Shown here in pieces: positions 57,576-64,000 of a DNA stretch of 64,000 nt. The stretch is from Methanomassiliicoccaceae archaeon (GTDB taxonomy: Archaea; Thermoplasmatota; Thermoplasmata; Methanomassiliicoccales; Methanomassiliicoccaceae): assembly GCA_963728405.1 (NCBI GenBank), contig CAVSJV010000013.1, positions 32,001 through 96,000 of the forward strand. Reading direction: 5' to 3'. The translations under genes and the position numbers were made by a program. Below the pieces are notes generated by a model that searched no databases, was not told the origin of the DNA, and was given only the letters and a program-made list of their open reading frames with translations. Each line of letters starts with the position of its first letter. The first letter of the stretch is position 1.

Positions 57576-59237
57576 ATGGCATATTCCCTAGGACAAAGCC
57601 AGCCTATCATCGTGCTGAGAGAAGGCACAGAGCGCACCAAGAACAAGGACGCGCAGGCGAACAACATTGCAGCTGCCCGTGCCATCGCTGACGCGGTCCG
57701 CTCCACTTTGGGACCGAAGGGCATGGACAAGATGCTCGTCGATTCCATCGGCGATGTAGTGATCACCAATGACGGTGTCACCATACTGAAGACCATCGAT
57801 GTCCAGCACCCCGCGGCCAAGATGGTCGTCGAGGTCGCTAAGACCCAGGACTCCGAGTGCGGCGACGGCACCACCACCTCTGTGGTCGTGGCTGGCGAAC
57901 TGCTCAAGAAGGCCGAGGACCTCATCGACAAGAACGTTCACCCCACCATCATCGCCAACGGGTACAAGCTCGCGGCGGCCGAGGCTATCAAGATCCTCAA
58001 CGTCATCGCCGTGGATGTCAAGGGCGATGAGATCCTGAGAAAGGTCGCCATGACCGCCATGACCGGTAAGTCCGTCGGCGGCCAGAGGGACTACCTTGCT
58101 GATCTCTCTGTAAAGGCGATCAAGTCTGTTTCCGAGAAGCAGAACGGCAAGAACAAAGTGGATGTGGAGAACATTAAGGTAGAGAAGAAGACGGGCGGCT
58201 CTGTGGCTGATACCGAGCTCATCAACGGCCTGGTCGTTGACAAGGAGAAGGTCCACCCCCGCATGCCCAAGGCCGTCAAGAACGCCAAGATCGCCATCTT
58301 ATCTGCCGCCCTCGAGATCAAGAAGACTGAGGTAGAGGCAAAGATCCAGATCCGTGACCCGGCCTCCATGCAGCGCTTCCTTGACGAAGAAGAGAACCAG
58401 CTGAAGGGCATGGTCGACAAGATCAAGGCTGCCGGAGCGAACGTCGTGTTCTGCCAGAAGGGCATGGATGACCTGGTCCAGCATTATCTGGCCAAGGCCG
58501 GCATCTACGCCTGCAGGAGGCTCAAGGAGTCGGACATGGAGAAGTTGGCCAAGGCCACCGGCGGCAATGTCGTCGGCAACCTGGATTCCATAAACAAGTC
58601 TGACCTTGGGATCGCTGAGATGGTCGAGGAGAAGAAGATCGGTGAGGAGGATATGACCTTCGTCACCGGCTGCAAGAACCCCAAGGCCATCAGCATCATC
58701 ATCCGCGGCGGTACCGAGCACGTCATCGACGAGGTCGAGCGTGCGCTGCACGACGCCCTCAGGGTAGTCGGAGTCGCTCTGGAAGACGGCAAGGTCGTCG
58801 CCGGCGGCGGAGCTCCCGAGATCGAGCTCGCTCTCAGGCTGGCCGACTATGCCTCGACCGTAGGTGGACGCGAGCAGCTGGCCATCGAGGCCTTCGCCGA
58901 GGCCATGGAAGTAATCCCCTGGGCCCTCGCCGAGAACGCTGGTCTGGACCCCATCGACCTGGTCATCAAGCTGAAGACCGCCCATGAGGGTAAGAAGAAC
59001 GCCGTATACATGGGCATAAACCTTGAGACTGGTGAGCCGGCCAACATGCTGGACGCCAATGTCATCGAGCCCCTGAGGGTAAAGACCCAGGTCATCGAGT
59101 CCGCGACCGAGGTCGCCGGAATGATCCTGAGGATCGACGATGTCATTGCCTCCAAGAAGGGACCCGGCGCGGGCGGACCGGGCGGAATGCCTGGCGGTAT
59201 GCCTCCCGGAATGGGCGGAATGCCCGGCATGATGTAA
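57576..59237 (+). CDS. Thermosome subunit (group II chaperonin)
   Basis: [31 protein letters not shown] and a GGM-rich tail. Confidence 0.97.
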
Positions 59238-59252
59238 TTCGGGGTCAAGGTA

Positions 59253-59291
59253 TCCTCCTTTCCCAAACCACTTCCTTTTCACATTTTTCTC
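59253..59291 (+). terminator. Pyrimidine-rich terminator after the thermosome gene
   Basis: TCCTCCTTTCCCAAACCACTTCCTTTTCACATTTTTCT. Confidence 0.5.
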
Positions 59292-59387
59292 ATACCTCGT
59301 TAACATGGTGCCAGCTTCGGTGAAAAACGACGGTACTTACAAATAGCGAACATCATGTTCTCCGCAATAATTTGCATTAGGAGGGAT

Positions 59388-60755
59388 ATGATGAGCAAGA
59401 TTACATCTGCAGCCGCGGTGATGATCATGGGCATGTTCATGGTCGGCATCTTTGCCGCTCCGGTGAATGCGTTGATCGCCACTGCCCCTACGTGGGAGGT
59501 AGACGATCCTTGGGCCATGGGAAAAGAGGTCGACCTGGGGGCCGATCTGACCGACTATATCGACAATAACAGCGACCTGAACGACCTGTTAATGTATTCT
59601 AATATGACCATTGACGATCTCAACATCGACAGCATGGCCAGCGCCTATGTCATTTTCACTGTGGTCAGCGAGACGGACACCACTTACACCCTGACGGCCA
59701 AGATGGCGGTCAAGCTCGCTACTCAGGCCAATATGAAGATCACCGGCATGCTGCCGGCGGCAGGAACCTATGATGCGGACCAGAACCTATGGTTTGGATC
59801 AGATGTTCCCAAGGAGACCAAGATCATCAGTGCAGAACTCACCGAGAAGCTCGGCATTGTGATCGGAGCCACGGCCATAGTCGACAAATCGAGCTACGCG
59901 GTTAATAAGATAGATTGGACCCTGAAGTGCGCGATGGTGCTGGAAGCCAAAGCCAAGAACATACCTCAGATAAACTCCACCGAGAACCAACAGATCGTCA
60001 GCTATAAGGATTATGATCTTGGAATGAGCCTGGTGGCCGGGGCCAACCTGTCCATGTTGTTCACCCCTGCTCTGGACCTCTATCAGTTCCCGTTCTCTAC
60101 TAATGATGCCTGGTACACCAACAACAGCATGGTGACCGTCACTGGAGATATCAGCGGGTCCTTCAACGCTCACGGGTTGACCGCCGAGCAGGAGGAGCAG
60201 ATATTCACCGGTGATCTGAAGAACGCCACGGGTTCGACGAAGTTCCCGATCGAGTTTGATCACCTCACCTCGCCGGACGGCGAGATCACCGATGGCAACT
60301 TCGGCCCCTATTATGGCAATATCACTACCATGGAAATGGAATGCCTTAGTGGGGACAACGAGACCATCAATGGAGTGGATTTAGATGTATTCAACATCCA
60401 GATAGATGGTGGAGCTCAGATGTTATACGCATCCGGTTTCAAGGTTCTTGGCCTGTCGGCAAACATCGATAGTCTACCCATGGACCTACCCTCTGAGGTC
60501 AGCTCCATAATGGCGATGATGGGCAACCAGGACATAGCAATGGACCCCGTCCCCGTGGATACCGCCACCGCCAAAATCGCTTCGATCGAGACCTACACCG
60601 ATAGCGTCGCGTCTCAGGCCGGAGCTAATGGAGCTAGCAGCAGCCTAGCTGACTTCTTCCTGAAGGCCCCCTTTACGGGCATCATTATGGCGGTCCTTGC
60701 AGCGGTCATCATAACGGCCCTGTTGGCGATAGGGCTGAAGTCACGGAAGCACTGA
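59388..60755 (+). CDS. Exported, C-terminally anchored hypothetical (surface) protein
   Basis: Signal peptide, APTWEVDDPWAMG, acidic Thr/Asn-rich body, C-terminal TM helix and basic tail; GGAGG upstream. Confidence 0.8.
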   Translation: MMSKITSAAAVMIMGMFMVGIFAAPVNALIATAPTWEVDDPWAMGKEVDLGADLTDYIDNNSDLNDLLMYSNMTIDDLNIDSMASAYVIFTVVSETDTTYTLTAKMAVKLATQANMKITGMLPAAGTYDADQNLWFGSDVPKETKIISAELTEKLGIVIGATAIVDKSSYAVNKIDWTLKCAMVLEAKAKNIPQINSTENQQIVSYKDYDLGMSLVAGANLSMLFTPALDLYQFPFSTNDAWYTNNSMVTVTGDISGSFNAHGLTAEQEEQIFTGDLKNATGSTKFPIEFDHLTSPDGEITDGNFGPYYGNITTMEMECLSGDNETINGVDLDVFNIQIDGGAQMLYASGFKVLGLSANIDSLPMDLPSEVSSIMAMMGNQDIAMDPVPVDTATAKIASIETYTDSVASQAGANGASSSLADFFLKAPFTGIIMAVLAAVIITALLAIGLKSRKH

Positions 60756-60760
60756 TCTTC

Positions 60761-60780
60761 AAACCTTTTTTCTTTTTTTT
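60761..60780 (+). terminator. Oligo-T terminator
   Basis: AAACCTTTTTTCTTTTTTTT directly after the stop codon. Confidence 0.7.
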
Positions 60781-61099
60781 ATAATAATCAACGATCGGAT
60801 TATCTTGAAAAATGATTGATCCTATCACAAGATCTAGCGGATAGTTTTGGAGGAGCCCGAAGGTCATTTTCGAAAATTCTTACAAAAAAGTATCATCATC
60901 TGTGCCATTGAACAGAAATTTCACTTACATTTGCTGGCAACGAATGAGCTCTCGATCCATTATGTAATTTCATTAATGCATATATAATTACAAAGATAAT
61001 TGTAAATTTACATGAGCCAGTAGAAAATGGAGAAAAAATATATTCCTACTTATCGTATAAGTAATAAATAAAAATATGATAAAGAGAGAAGCTTTACTA
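60780..61099. other. Strongly AT-rich non-coding region with clustered palindromes
   Basis: TTACAA-N6-TTGTAA (60988-61005), TGTAAATTTACA (61001-61012), TACTTAT-CGT-ATAAGTA (61047-61063). Confidence 0.6.
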
Positions 61100-61516
61100 T
61101 TATTGCTTCTCTATTTTTCCTTTCTTCCCTTTTGAAATATCTAAACCATAGTCCGATTGTTTTGCATAACAATCAGTAAGGACTAATTGTGTGCCTATCT
61201 TGACATCGAGCTTTTCGGGGAGCTCGATATCATCATCCCAGAGGGTCAAACGGCACGTACCGGTCTCATCCTCAACATCCAAGTTCCTGACCTTGCCCTG
61301 CCCACCGGTCCGCTTATTGAATGTCTTAGCTTCGTTTATCTTAGTGACCTTCACCACTGCAGAGGCCTCTTCCCGGTCTTTGAGATCGGCGATTTTCTTT
61401 GTTACCATATTAACTCCTCCTTTTTCCAGAACCAAGCGGCGTATGGTGGCGTCATCCACCAGCCCCCCGAACTCTTCACGGAGCCTAGCCATCTTTGATT
61501 CTAGACTTTCATTCAT
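61100..61516 (-). CDS. Single OB-fold ssDNA-binding (RPA/SSB-like) protein
   Basis: EFGGLVDDAT N-terminal helix; KIADL...KTFNKRTGGQGKVRNLDVEDETGTCRLTLWD. Confidence 0.85.
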   Translation of the reverse strand: MNESLESKMARLREEFGGLVDDATIRRLVLEKGGVNMVTKKIADLKDREEASAVVKVTKINEAKTFNKRTGGQGKVRNLDVEDETGTCRLTLWDDDIELPEKLDVKIGTQLVLTDCYAKQSDYGLDISKGKKGKIEKQ

Positions 61517-61734
61517 TCAAGGAACTCATAAACTATGTGCCATTAAACTGTTGGTTATGTAATGCAGGGAAATATAATAGCAAGATACGTAAACAGCTAT
61601 ATATTATAAGTATATTACAATATTGTACCATAATGTACAACCAAGGTAACACTAAATTTTAACTCCTGGTGATGATTCGAGTATGGGATGCACTCGAGGG
61701 AACGTCACCTCGTCCACATTCGTAGTGTGTACAA

Positions 61735-62553
61735 ATGCGCGCCGCCATATATGCACGGGTTTCCACGGATGATCAGGCTAAAGAAGGCTTTAGCATACCG
61801 GCCCAGCTAAAGCGCCTTCAGGCGTATTGCAAGGCCAAAGGCTGGGATATCTGCTCTGAATATGTTGATGAGGGTTTTTCAGGCCGTGATACCAATAGGC
61901 CAGCATATCAAAGGATGATGGGCGAGAGAGAACGTTGGGATGTGATATTGGTGCTAAAGATGGACCGTATCCACCGTAACTCCAAGAACTTCACTCAAAT
62001 GATGGATGACCTGAACAGTTGGAAGAGGCAGTTCAATTCCATGCAGGAGAAATTCGATACCACCTCGGCGATGGGGAGGTTCGTGATGGACATTATCCAA
62101 CGTATTGCTCAGCTGGAATCGGAGCAGATCGGTGAACGGGTAAAGGTAGGCATGACTCAGAAGGCCAAAAGGGGCAGTGGCTACCTTGGCTCACCCGATC
62201 CCTATGGCTACGAGGTCGAGAACGGTCAACTAAAGATCATGGACAAGGAGGCCGGGGTTGTCCCGTCCATCTACCACGCCTATATGATGGGCTTCTCGCT
62301 CGATGAGATCGCAAGGAAGCTCAACGAGAGGGGCATCCCGGCGAAAAAAGGTGGCCCCTGGAGCAAGCAGATGATCAGTAAAGTTCTCCGAAATCCAATT
62401 TACTGTGGATATGTCCAGTGGGATGGTCATCTTATCAAACTGGATTACTTCACTCTGATATCTGCCGGAGGCTACAATCTGATCCAAGATCTTATGCAAG
62501 AACGGCGCCGCAACCGGTCAGGTAATCCTCATCGCCATCTGGAGGCCGTATAG
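61735..62553 (+). CDS. Serine recombinase (resolvase + recombinase domains), copy 1
   Basis: YARVSTDDQ, DEGFSG...RP, KMDRIHRN, PYGY, LNERGIP..KGG.WS, LRNPIYCG. Confidence 0.92.
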   Translation: MRAAIYARVSTDDQAKEGFSIPAQLKRLQAYCKAKGWDICSEYVDEGFSGRDTNRPAYQRMMGERERWDVILVLKMDRIHRNSKNFTQMMDDLNSWKRQFNSMQEKFDTTSAMGRFVMDIIQRIAQLESEQIGERVKVGMTQKAKRGSGYLGSPDPYGYEVENGQLKIMDKEAGVVPSIYHAYMMGFSLDEIARKLNERGIPAKKGGPWSKQMISKVLRNPIYCGYVQWDGHLIKLDYFTLISAGGYNLIQDLMQERRRNRSGNPHRHLEAV

Positions 62554-62554
62554 G

Positions 62555-63373
62555 ATGGTTAGGGCGGCCGTTTATATCAGGGTCTCTACTGAGGAGCAGG
62601 CGGAGGAGGGTTTCTCCCTGGAAGCGCAGGAAGATCGGTTGCTGGCCTACTGTGAGGCTCAGGGCTGGGATGTGGCTGGAGTTTATGCCGATAAGGGCCA
62701 TACTGGCCGCAAGATCAACACCCGTGACGCTTACAAAAAGATGCTGGATGATAGGGGTCTTTGGGATACGATTCTGGTGATGAAGATGGACCGTATCCAC
62801 CGTAACTCCAAGAACTTCATGATCATGATGGAGGACCTGGAGAAATGGGGCAAGAAGTTCACCTCCATGCAGGAAGAGCTGGACACATCCACATCCATCG
62901 GCCGATTTGTGGTGGACATGATCCAGCGTATCGCTCAGCTAGAATCTGAGCAGATCGGTGAGCGAACGTACATGGGGATGGCCCAGAAAGCTGAGACCGG
63001 CGGGCTCCTGGGATTCAACCCACCATTCGGCTATGAGATCGCCAATAACGATCTGAGTATCATCGAGGGCGAAGCCTCGGTGGTCAAGGAGATATTCGAA
63101 CTGTACAGCTCGGGCGGATCAATGAATGCCATTGCTATTTATCTCAATGGCCGCTCGATTTCCACCCGGAGGGGCGGTCGGTGGACCCTGTATTCGATCA
63201 GACAGATATTGCACAACCCGGCCTACGCAGGCTACCGGCGTTGGGATGGCTTTCTGGTCCCCAGCAACCATGTGTCCATCGTGGACCTGGCCGCCTTCAA
63301 CTATGTTCAGGAGTTATCCGCGAAACGGACAAAAGACCCCCGAAAGAGGACGGTCAAGAAACTGATCCCTTAG
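62555..63373 (+). CDS. Serine recombinase (resolvase + recombinase domains), copy 2
   Basis: YIRVSTEEQ, KMDRIHRN, PFGY, TRRGGRW, LHNPAYAG. Confidence 0.92.
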   Translation: MVRAAVYIRVSTEEQAEEGFSLEAQEDRLLAYCEAQGWDVAGVYADKGHTGRKINTRDAYKKMLDDRGLWDTILVMKMDRIHRNSKNFMIMMEDLEKWGKKFTSMQEELDTSTSIGRFVVDMIQRIAQLESEQIGERTYMGMAQKAETGGLLGFNPPFGYEIANNDLSIIEGEASVVKEIFELYSSGGSMNAIAIYLNGRSISTRRGGRWTLYSIRQILHNPAYAGYRRWDGFLVPSNHVSIVDLAAFNYVQELSAKRTKDPRKRTVKKLIP

Positions 63374-63415
63374 CCGACCTAACCTTTTTGTTATGTCCCG
63401 GGAATATAGGGGCAT

Positions 63416-64000
63416 ATGCCGGAACGATGGGCCCTTCAAAACAAGGACGCCGCATTTATGTGGTGCGAACACCGGAACGAGCTAGGGATCCGATGCATCC
63501 TGGATATCCTGGGTGGATATGGTCGCGAGGAGGAGCATGCCAAACTGTCCTACAATGCCTACATTGATCTGGCCAAAGAAATCGCCCGCCGGAAGCTCAA
63601 GGCATCTATATCGGTGAAGCCGTCCACCTTTGGCGGAACTATCAATCGGGACCTGACCAAGCGATTGGTCGAACAGCTGGGCGTTAACGTCCATAAACTG
63701 GGGGTAGGGTTCGAACTGGATATGGAAGGCCAACGAACCGTCGATCTCACGTTGCTTTTAGCGGAGGAATGCGCGCGCTCCGGCCTGCCCGTTACAATCG
63801 CTCTGCAGGCATATCTGAACCGTACTCCGCGGGACATCGAAAGGATGATGGACGCTGGGGTAAAGGTCCGTCTGGTCAAGGGTGCTTACACTGGTGATCT
63901 ATCTGATTACAATATGATTGCTGAGATCTACAAAGATCTGGTCGAGCTGGTCATATCTTACGATGTGCCATTCTGTGTGGCCACTCATGACCCAGACATT
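63416..64000 (+). CDS. Proline dehydrogenase family protein (runs off the window end)
   Basis: Read manually from ATG 63416: LDILG, SVKPSTFG, LDME, ALQAYLNRT..D, VRLVKGAY, ATHD. Confidence 0.88.
   Translation, partial: MPERWALQNKDAAFMWCEHRNELGIRCILDILGGYGREEEHAKLSYNAYIDLAKEIARRKLKASISVKPSTFGGTINRDLTKRLVEQLGVNVHKLGVGFELDMEGQRTVDLTLLLAEECARSGLPVTIALQAYLNRTPRDIERMMDAGVKVRLVKGAYTGDLSDYNMIAEIYKDLVELVISYDVPFCVATHDPDI

Follow-up and report, generated by a model that had tools for sequence, protein, structure and literature searches.

Why should an archaeal chromosome keep two serine recombinase genes side by side among housekeeping genes? The question is raised by a 64,000-nucleotide stretch of DNA from a Methanomassiliicoccaceae archaeon (GenBank assembly GCA_963728405.1, contig CAVSJV010000013.1, positions 32,001 to 96,000), the whole of which we call the window. 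Close to its downstream end lie 2 adjacent genes for compact serine recombinases, A and B, with an intergenic control region in front of A. We propose, tentatively, that A and B form a domesticated pair that probably acts as an A/B heteromer and resolves chromosome dimers at a site in its own promoter region, in place of the tyrosine recombinase XerA. This is the best explanation we have, and we regard it as possible rather than established. An earlier account of the same DNA, here called the sequence-only reading, had drawn attention to the pair.

What kind of enzymes are A and B? The sequence-only reading had described 2 paralogues of 272 amino acids (aa) whose genes lie 1 nucleotide (nt) apart, and these open reading frames (ORFs) are confirmed: the proteins are 51% identical (133 of 261 positions in BLASTP, E 3e-100), and across the family the genes abut (1 nt) or overlap by 8 nt. 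The GC content of A is 51% and that of B 54%. Both proteins match the Pfam families Resolvase (PF00239; E 9.9e-38 for A and 1.2e-35 for B) and Recombinase (PF07508; 2.5e-17 and 6e-20), and the Pfam scan returned no zinc-ribbon family at E<=0.01 and no HTH_7 match in either protein. An AlphaFold model of A (34-row alignment, mean predicted local distance difference test score 76) has a catalytic fold, a long helix at residues 112-145, and a compact C-terminal domain; the model shows no domain past the recombinase domain, and the protein stops at residue 272. Pfam and the model agree in this with the earlier description of resolvase and recombinase domains that lack the zinc ribbon and coiled coil. 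The top Foldseek matches of the model are complexes of serine integrases with their attachment (att) sites (LI-type integrase, Bxb1, and phiC31), with alignments that span only the N-terminal and recombinase domains of the matched integrases. By sequence, the closest solved structure is the catalytic domain of the TP901-1 integrase (7e-27).

Both proteins carry the catalytic Y-x-R-V-S motif and the motif KMDRIHRNSKNF. The sequence-only reading was right to note the 2 motifs in both copies and wrong to call the second one unusual: KMDRIHRNSKNF aligns with KLDRLSRS of the TP901-1 integrase, and we take it to be the family's form of the canonical D-R-x-x-R motif of serine recombinases, so that it is not unusual in kind. 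In an alignment of 63 sequences (one incomplete row is without 2 N-terminal residues), the nucleophilic serine (S10/S11), the arginines, and DR..R (DRIHR) are invariant in 29 of 29 B sequences and in 34 of 34 that are either A or the product of a single-copy gene in another lineage (a "single"). Invariant columns common to A, B, and the singles number 80. A and B thus belong to a compact and catalytically intact serine recombinase family. The 2 paralogues are not equally alike along their length. Across 29 genomes, mean A-B identity is 61% in the catalytic domain, 69% in the alphaE helix, and 35% in the DNA-binding domain: a pattern that would be expected of 2 subunits with a common chemistry and a common oligomerisation surface that read different DNA, and that fits a heteromer without proving one. 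The nearest database proteins are annotated only as "recombinase family protein"; one, from Methanomassiliicoccus luminyensis, is 73% identical, which assigns the window to the genus Methanomassiliicoccus. In the window's own genome (a 2.73-Mb assembly of 18 contigs, 93.75% complete), full copies occur at a single locus, that of the pair.

A block of 37 nt that the sequence-only reading had reported as common to A and B is indeed letter-identical in the 2 genes. It is embedded in a 263-nt stretch that is 73% identical between them, and a run of at least 37 identical nt within that stretch has a probability of about 5e-4 under independence. At the protein level, the peptide K-M-D-R-I-H-R-N-S-(K/R)-N-F is near-invariant, in A and B as in the singles, with few departures: one B (locus L040) has K-I-D and N-I, one A (L024) has R-D, and 2 rows have A or T for S. 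At the codon level, the block differs between species and tends to match within a genome. Counting only degenerate-codon sites at which A and B have the same amino acid, the 2 genes of a genome use the same codon at 261 of 330 sites (79%) in the 14-codon block and at 1610 of 3162 (51%) elsewhere (28 genomes). A second peak of codon identity lies 45-59 codons downstream of the block, in the alphaE helix. Within the genus (9 genomes), A matches the B of its own genome at 39.0 of 42 nt and the B of other genomes at 37.2, and orthologous A copies match one another at 36.75; none of 5000 label shuffles reached the observed within-genome value. The within-genome excess was not significant in 2 smaller genera (4 genomes, p 0.25; 3 genomes, p 0.51). 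The earlier suggestion had been gene conversion or strong constraint, and both find support here, from within-genome codon identity and from the invariant peptide: we read the block as a product of strong protein-level constraint together with recurrent short-tract gene conversion. A stronger codon preference at critical residues may add to the likeness. The tandem pair would then be a case of ongoing gene conversion that stays within the catalytic core, in 2 paralogues with 51% identity otherwise.

The pair is widespread in its order, Methanomassiliicoccales. With A as query, 55 of the order's 61 genomes have it, as do 46 of the 49 of high quality, and in every positive genome the A orthologue adjoins the B orthologue. 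Identity to A runs from 89% to 73% in the genus, is 64-73% in the family, and is 54-65% in the other 6 families. The 6 genomes without a match comprise 3 that are 66-73% complete and 3 that are 94-98% complete; because of the latter, we call the pair near-universal, not universal. Gene order is conserved as well. The RPA-like OB-fold gene that diverges from A (the OB gene) stands next to A in 19 of 19 fetched loci, 18 from the window's family and 1 from family f6; a gene like that for proline dehydrogenase (ProDH) follows B in 12 of these 19, whose flanks are short. Ten loci of other families have the thermosome gene nearby in 8 and the OB gene in 3, and the synteny of 80 named loci agrees with this picture. 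As side observations, A and B are about 1.9 kb apart with inserted DNA between them in L113 and L121, and a second A-like gene lies about 2 kb after A in L082.

Trees were built with IQ-TREE in quick mode, with support from the SH-like approximate likelihood ratio test (SH-aLRT). In the first (70 rows), the A proteins of the order grouped with singles of other classes (support 99); that tree was rooted on a very long outgroup branch, which drew the B copies of family f7 to the base, and the second tree (66 rows) was made without that row. In the second, the order's A proteins form one clan (86) and its B proteins another (98), and the A and B subtrees each mirror family and genus structure. 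Since each clan repeats the taxonomy, the duplication is older than the sampled order, and A and B have both diverged along with their hosts from then on. The median ratio of nonsynonymous to synonymous divergence (dN/dS) in the genus is 0.125 for A and 0.113 for B, at a dS of about 1.2, which is near saturation. On these comparisons, A and B are under strong purifying selection and vertically inherited. The idea that the pair is inherited vertically together with its SSB-like neighbour holds for the pair itself, with its presence in most of the order and its co-diverging trees; the link to the OB gene holds in most but not all families, and elsewhere in the phylum one copy is the rule. A sporadic pair at the edge of an island had been the opposing expectation; the pair is not sporadic, nor does it mark an island's edge.

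Does the family extend beyond the order? In our phylum sample, 162 of 401 genomes have a match (E<=1e-30). The families of the order nearly always carry 2 copies: at least 2 matches were found in 60 of 62 sampled genomes, and family f7 has a match in 47 of 48. Other classes mostly carry one copy at 53-59% identity, as in f13 (14 of 14 genomes), f24 (37 of 53), and f27 (10 of 24); family f16 has no serine recombinase in 36 genomes. Ten single-gene loci all lie among housekeeping genes, 6 of them beside ribosomal protein S8e and SRP19 and 2 beside RrnaAD, RpoL, and TruD. The order's A is nested among the singles of other classes in the tree, and by this placement A is taken as the orthologue of the mostly single-copy recombinase of other Thermoplasmatota. 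The family is a vertically inherited chromosomal gene in large parts of Thermoplasmatota, with a tandem duplicate in Methanomassiliicoccales. A scan with one genome per species (185,579 species) found 487 loci that encode a relative. The best 80 of the 487 belong to Thermoplasmatota or to unclassified Methanobacteriota, Methanomicrobia, or "archaeon" metagenome-assembled genomes, whose phylum rests on their labels; there is one exception, from Hydrothermarchaeota. This orthologue, in Candidatus Pyrohabitans jungbluthii (L114), is 58% identical and stands in the tree with the Thermoplasmatota singles.

Some loci outside the order hold a further gene. A single recombinase is followed by a protein of 245-253 aa in L051 (5193-5951, minus strand), L055 (6839-7597, plus strand), and L058 (6806-7540, plus strand), and also in L102 and L127; in L109 and L123 the order is recombinase, fusion gene, recombinase. 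In L051 and L055, Pfam finds an HNH nuclease domain fused to a recombinase domain, and in L058 only the recombinase domain scored. The recombinase domain of the fusion is 35-45% identical to that of the recombinase itself, and the fusion could be a site-specific nuclease for the same DNA site. We know of no description of such a fusion of HNH and recombinase domains.

If the pair has a chromosomal task, which system would it replace? XerA was called by score, as present where a protein exceeded the cut-off of the archaeal XerA model (220 bits). The sequence-only reading had asked after XerA, and the window's genome and genus have no canonical one: the genome holds no match to the model at E<=1e-20, its best tyrosine recombinase domain (PF00589) scores 42 bits, and none of 10 genomes (9 of the genus and 1 of a sister genus) is over the cut-off. 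The best scores in those 10 span 216 bits to no match at all, with varying copy numbers, a pattern to be expected of mobile-element integrases. Of the 401 genomes, 73 exceed the XerA cut-off and 162 have the serine recombinase; 6 have both, 67 only XerA, 156 only the serine recombinase, and 172 neither, with the proviso that the genomes counted are related and not independent. The last group includes f16 and f34, which have one constant XerA-like gene below the threshold, at about 190 bits. In families f8-f12, which are Thermoplasmatales-like and belong to the same class as the order, all 42 genomes have XerA and none of the 42 has the serine recombinase. The distribution of the family is thus largely the inverse of that of canonical XerA, in a pattern that is not clean. 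XerA and its dif site have been studied experimentally in Thermoplasma acidophilum (PMC8371274).

One XerA-like candidate was rejected. Genus g3 has a 319-aa tyrosine recombinase of 207-216 bits, just under the cut-off (L059:8150-9106 in genome G012; L060 in G018), and it is flanked by genes for BspA-LRR/Flg_new surface proteins. It looks like a shufflon or phase-variation invertase for adhesin-like proteins.

Where might the enzymes act? The intergenic region between the OB gene and A contains a TATA-like box, TAAATTTTAAC, and a conserved TATGGGATGCAC, which we infer to be the promoter and transcript start of A; the genus alignment keeps a further conserved block beside them. An inverted repeat, TTGTAC-N6-GTACAA, is overlapped by a 12-bp palindrome, TACAATATTGTA, at 61616-61627, and is unique in the window's genome. 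As a general second site for the family it was rejected, and it stays a local candidate. In 28 of the 80 related loci, all from the order, a different palindrome, TGTCWGACA-AT-TGTCWGA, lies 54-93 nt before the start of A, with a TATA-like box on one side and a conserved GGGATGGGA element on the other; in the rest of those loci it seldom occurs. A search for the TGTC pattern in 5 genomes (up to 2 mismatches) matched the A promoter in all of them and gave 0 matches with the reversed control; some genomes have extra matches. Those of G032 (L147:4240-4259) and G043 (L148:4394-4411) have a downstream TTAAGGGATGGGATGC element, as at the recombinase promoter. Their locus, which is orthologous in 2 species and next to arcS, separates a giant TPR gene (>1344 aa) from the gene of an intron-containing tRNA and holds no recombinase remnant. 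Other candidates were set aside. The extra sites of G030 and G025, within a nikR-like coding sequence that precedes topA, are probably a coincidence. The window's own genome also has a perfect 19-bp TGTC-type palindrome (C5:363260); it falls inside a gene for an FN3-repeat surface protein and was rejected as chance.

The position of the pair on the chromosome is weak evidence for a role at the terminus. In 12 of 12 closed genomes of the order, it lies 0.30-0.50 genome lengths (mean 0.43) from the best Orc1/Cdc6 gene, with genome lengths that are exact for 6 and rounded for 6. Of the loci compared, it is the most distal from the origin: in the same genomes, the control genes radA, secY, and top6B lie at 0.10-0.30, 0.12-0.35, and 0.20-0.45. 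In genome G047, most of the stretch between 83 and 930 kb has a negative AT skew, the values from 996 kb onward are positive, and the maximum of the cumulative GC skew is at about 800-850 kb; the pair, at 860-862 kb, falls within the 800-930 kb zone of skew sign change. The GC and AT skew of the window's own contig (C13) has no usable switch. Outside the order, the distance to Orc1/Cdc6 in 3 one-contig genomes is 0.43, 0.15, and 0.22.

Nothing around the pair suggests that it is mobile. The sequence-only reading had noted an SSB-like gene and housekeeping neighbours without phage genes, and the annotation bears this out. Upstream come a radical-SAM gene, a thermosome subunit, a 466-aa membrane protein, and then the OB gene; downstream, past the window's end, come the rest of the ProDH-like gene, a 180-aa membrane protein, small ORFs, CrcB-like pieces, and a protein of metallo-beta-lactamase fold. 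No phage gene was found in the 14 kb past the window, no tRNA gene in the window, no Rfam match in window positions 59000-64000, and no flanking inverted or direct repeats around the locus. A search of the phage collection with the DNA of the pair gave no match. Among proteins, identity is 36-39% for the nearest from phages (Paenibacillus phages and TP901-1) and 35-37% for the nearest from plasmids. Only 2 of 2.9 million viral contigs hold the family (L208 and L209, from IMG/VR), and both carry the OB gene, A, B, a membrane protein, and ProDH; because of this host synteny, we regard both as fragments of host chromosomes, which were probably called viral because of the recombinases. GC content falls to 0.42-0.45 across about 60500-62000, a stretch made up mainly of the OB gene and AT-rich spacers. 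We conclude that the pair is not a mobile element.

How could such a pair work? A and B would be co-transcribed and are probably coupled in translation. Their nearly identical catalytic and oligomerisation core is kept alike by purifying selection and short-tract gene conversion, and their DNA-binding domains differ. The 2 subunits may assemble on one or more sites in the promoter region beside their own gene and, at that site, may repress their own transcription. When the chromosome is dimeric, the 2 copies of the promoter region would be recombined, in a resolution of the resolvase/res type. The A/B system would in this way stand in for XerA/dif, which these lineages lack. The substrate site, the formation of a heteromer, and the role in dimer resolution are the inferred parts of the account. 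A wider version has a compact serine recombinase replace XerA in much of Thermoplasmatota and in at least one Hydrothermarchaeota genome, and resolve dimers at a res/dif-like site beside its own gene; in Methanomassiliicoccales the A/B heteromer would be obligate, with a different half-site or subsite for each subunit. We consider this version possible but less likely than not.

Several observations weigh against dimer resolution by a heteromer in place of XerA. On the side of the site, no more than 3 of 80 related loci have TTGTAC-N6-GTACAA in its strict form, and the genus of the window is without the TGTC palindrome. On the side of position, radA, secY, and top6B are about as constant in their distance from Orc1/Cdc6 as the pair is, so that its constancy reflects conserved genome architecture, and we dropped it as a special feature; skew sampling in G008 gave no pattern, and 2 of the 3 one-contig genomes outside the order place the gene only 0.15-0.22 from the best Orc1/Cdc6. 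On the side of distribution, the pair was not found in the 3 unmatched genomes of the order that are 94-98% complete, 6 genomes have both XerA and the serine recombinase, the serine recombinase of f27 co-occurs with an XerA-like tyrosine recombinase (about 1e-50), and many genomes that hold the family also have tyrosine recombinases below the threshold. The HNH-nuclease fusion partner of some lineages is not explained by dimer resolution. Finally, most other lineages have one copy, and because they manage with it, a heteromer is not required by the family.

This last point leads to the most serious alternative, which we consider unlikely: that A keeps the ancestral single function, and that B was neofunctionalised and acts alone at another site or mainly as a DNA-binding regulator, with no heteromer at all. 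The single copy of most other Thermoplasmatota, the separate clan and strongly diverged DNA-binding domain of B, the symmetry of the conserved palindromes (which suit homodimers), and the failure of independent duplications elsewhere to join the B clan are all in keeping with it. It fits poorly with the retention of A and B together (the 60 of 62 genomes above), with genes that abut or overlap, with a B that keeps every catalytic residue, with catalytic and alphaE cores that stay alike, and with gene conversion between the copies. A different task is an alternative of slightly lower probability: the enzymes might carry out a programmed site-specific rearrangement, an inversion or excision that switches expression, instead of dimer resolution. 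Conserved catalytic residues would serve this purpose too, the relatives include the developmental excisase XisF and CcrA/B, at scores below threshold, and the 2 f6 genomes with a second TGTC site have it with the same promoter layout in the gap between the giant TPR gene and the tRNA gene. Yet the locus lacks flanking repeats, the candidate repeat is unique in its own genome, every locus examined has OB gene, A, B, and ProDH in one fixed order and orientation, and second sites occur only in some genomes, in one genus inside coding sequence.

Two further readings have little left to stand on. The proteins might have lost recombination in vivo and serve only as sequence-specific repressors or nucleoid proteins, a notion invited by palindromes that sit between the TATA box and the start of the gene itself, the classic operator position. 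The invariance of the nucleophilic serine, the arginines, and DR..R in all 63 sequences would be unexpected in a mere DNA binder, and we hold this reading to be highly improbable. The pair might, in turn, be a relic of a prophage, integrative element, or transposon, fixed by chance or selfish and without a host function. Its nearest characterised relatives are integrases of phages and of the staphylococcal cassette chromosome (SCC), the surrounding GC content is low, and other lineages have an HNH nuclease as partner; HNH nucleases are often selfish. Against a relic stand retention across the order with co-divergence, a dN/dS of about 0.12 and the 80 invariant columns, housekeeping neighbours in every lineage at a single-copy locus, and no genuine viral context among the 2.9 million viral contigs, which together bring it close to refuted.

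How does a dimer-resolving A/B pair compare with known systems? The large serine recombinases (TP901-1, Bxb1, phiC31, LI integrase, CcrA/CcrB/CcrC, and XisF) have in common with A and B the serine catalytic domain, DR..R, alphaE, and PF07508, and CcrA/CcrB is likewise a tandem pair. A and B differ from the large serine integrases in having half the length, no zinc ribbon or coiled coil (the parts that tell attP from attB and set direction in serine integrases), vertical inheritance, and no phage or cassette context; their NCBIfam scores stay far under the cut-offs for CcrB (152.5 against 900 bits), CcrA (104.8 against 700), and XisF (82 against 375). The small serine resolvases (Tn3/gamma-delta, Sin, beta, and ParA of RK2) have the catalytic fold in common with A and B. 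The res site is placed between tnpA and tnpR; like res, the A/B gene adjoins a divergent promoter region with palindromic candidate sites, and the logic proposed for A/B is the same: direct-repeat resolution and self-repression. In contrast to the small resolvases, A and B carry a C-terminal PF07508 domain instead of a small helix-turn-helix, measure 272 aa against about 180-200 aa, are chromosomal and conserved across the phylum, comprise 2 paralogous subunits, and have palindromic candidate sites where the small resolvases have a res with accessory subsites.

Like the Xer/dif systems (XerC/D, XerS, XerH, and archaeal XerA), A/B is a single conserved chromosomal locus; it lies far from the origin, and the layout of A and B recalls the paired paralogues XerC/XerD. 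The enzyme family is, however, unrelated, the chemistry is that of serine and not of tyrosine, candidate sites take the place of dif, and the function of A/B is a proposal. The same compact architecture occurs in a 266-aa recombinase from Priestia megaterium (35.6% identity; aligned over residues 6-269), which differs from A/B in being bacterial, plasmid-borne, and the product of a single gene, and is likewise without functional annotation. It is found on plasmids of 5-26 kb that are non-mobilisable (e.g., NZ_CP120615.1, 5.4 kb, L203), next to a MerR-family regulator, and by analogy is likely a plasmid multimer resolvase without a zinc ribbon. The occurrence of the short architecture on small Priestia plasmids fits a resolvase-type job for A/B, to judge by that analogy.

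To our knowledge, chromosome dimer resolution in bacteria and archaea is done by tyrosine recombinases of the Xer type. The known serine recombinases come from mobile elements, from plasmids, and from a few developmental switches. A review on recombinases of archaea describes the archaeal serine recombinases as seen in transposons and never fully investigated (PMC8371274). A literature search, with subscription journals outside its coverage, found no work on a conserved chromosomal serine recombinase of these archaea and none on a missing XerA in Methanomassiliicoccales. What appears to be new is not the enzyme family, which is known, but its chromosomal, phylum-wide, XerA-complementary role and its compact paired form. 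Should the proposal be true, serine chemistry would here, for the first time, underlie a natural system of chromosome dimer resolution. Given the conservation, the vertical descent, the housekeeping setting, and the distribution inverse to that of XerA, a non-orthologous replacement is therefore directly testable. Very small for a natural serine recombinase at 272 aa, without a zinc ribbon and with a candidate site of 18-20 bp, the enzyme is also of interest for recombinase mechanism and as a tool for genome engineering.

Table. Features of the recombinase locus in the window (positions are those of the window; ".", no strand).
Feature	Position	Strand	Remark
Recombinase A	61735..62553	+	272 aa; resolvase domain, long alphaE helix, recombinase (DNA-binding) domain
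Recombinase B	62555..63373	+	272 aa; paralogue of A, with architecture and catalytic residues as in A
37-nt identical block, copy 1 (in A)	61957..61993	+	encodes K-M-D-R-I-H-R-N-S-K-N-F, the catalytic D-R-x-x-R motif
37-nt identical block, copy 2 (in B)	62783..62819	+	letter-identical to copy 1
OB-A intergenic control region	61517..61734	.	divergent promoters; candidate recombinase-binding or crossover region, from the conserved blocks and palindromes of relatives
Inverted repeat TTGTAC-N6-GTACAA	61623..61640	.	candidate binding site only
TATA-like TAAATTTTAAC (61653-61663) and conserved TATGGGATGCAC (61682-61693)	61653..61693	+	kept in genus alignment
RPA-like single OB-fold gene	61100..61516	-	138 aa; divergent from A
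Thermosome subunit gene	57576..59237	+	syntenic anchor, about 1.3-5 kb from the pair across families of the order
Proline-dehydrogenase-like (ProDH) gene	63416..64000, continues beyond window end	+	265 aa; conserved downstream neighbour

Some minor features of the locus and its genome complete the picture. Downstream of the OB gene, a 344-nt AT-rich spacer (60756-61099) holds no ORF and no Rfam match, and is part of the local dip in GC content. The leader at 61693-61712, from GGGATGCAC to the start of A, contains a GC-rich inverted repeat, CGAGG...CCTCG, whose arms vary among species of the genus and stay complementary; it may form an RNA hairpin in the 5' leader of A. Elsewhere in the genome (G000), an 18-bp inverted repeat, TTGTACCGTCCATGTACA, occurs on 2 contigs (C6:45080 and C18:20269), and a weak tyrosine recombinase match (C18:19633-20106) lies at a distance of 160 nt from one copy: a mobile element is probably present here in 2 copies.

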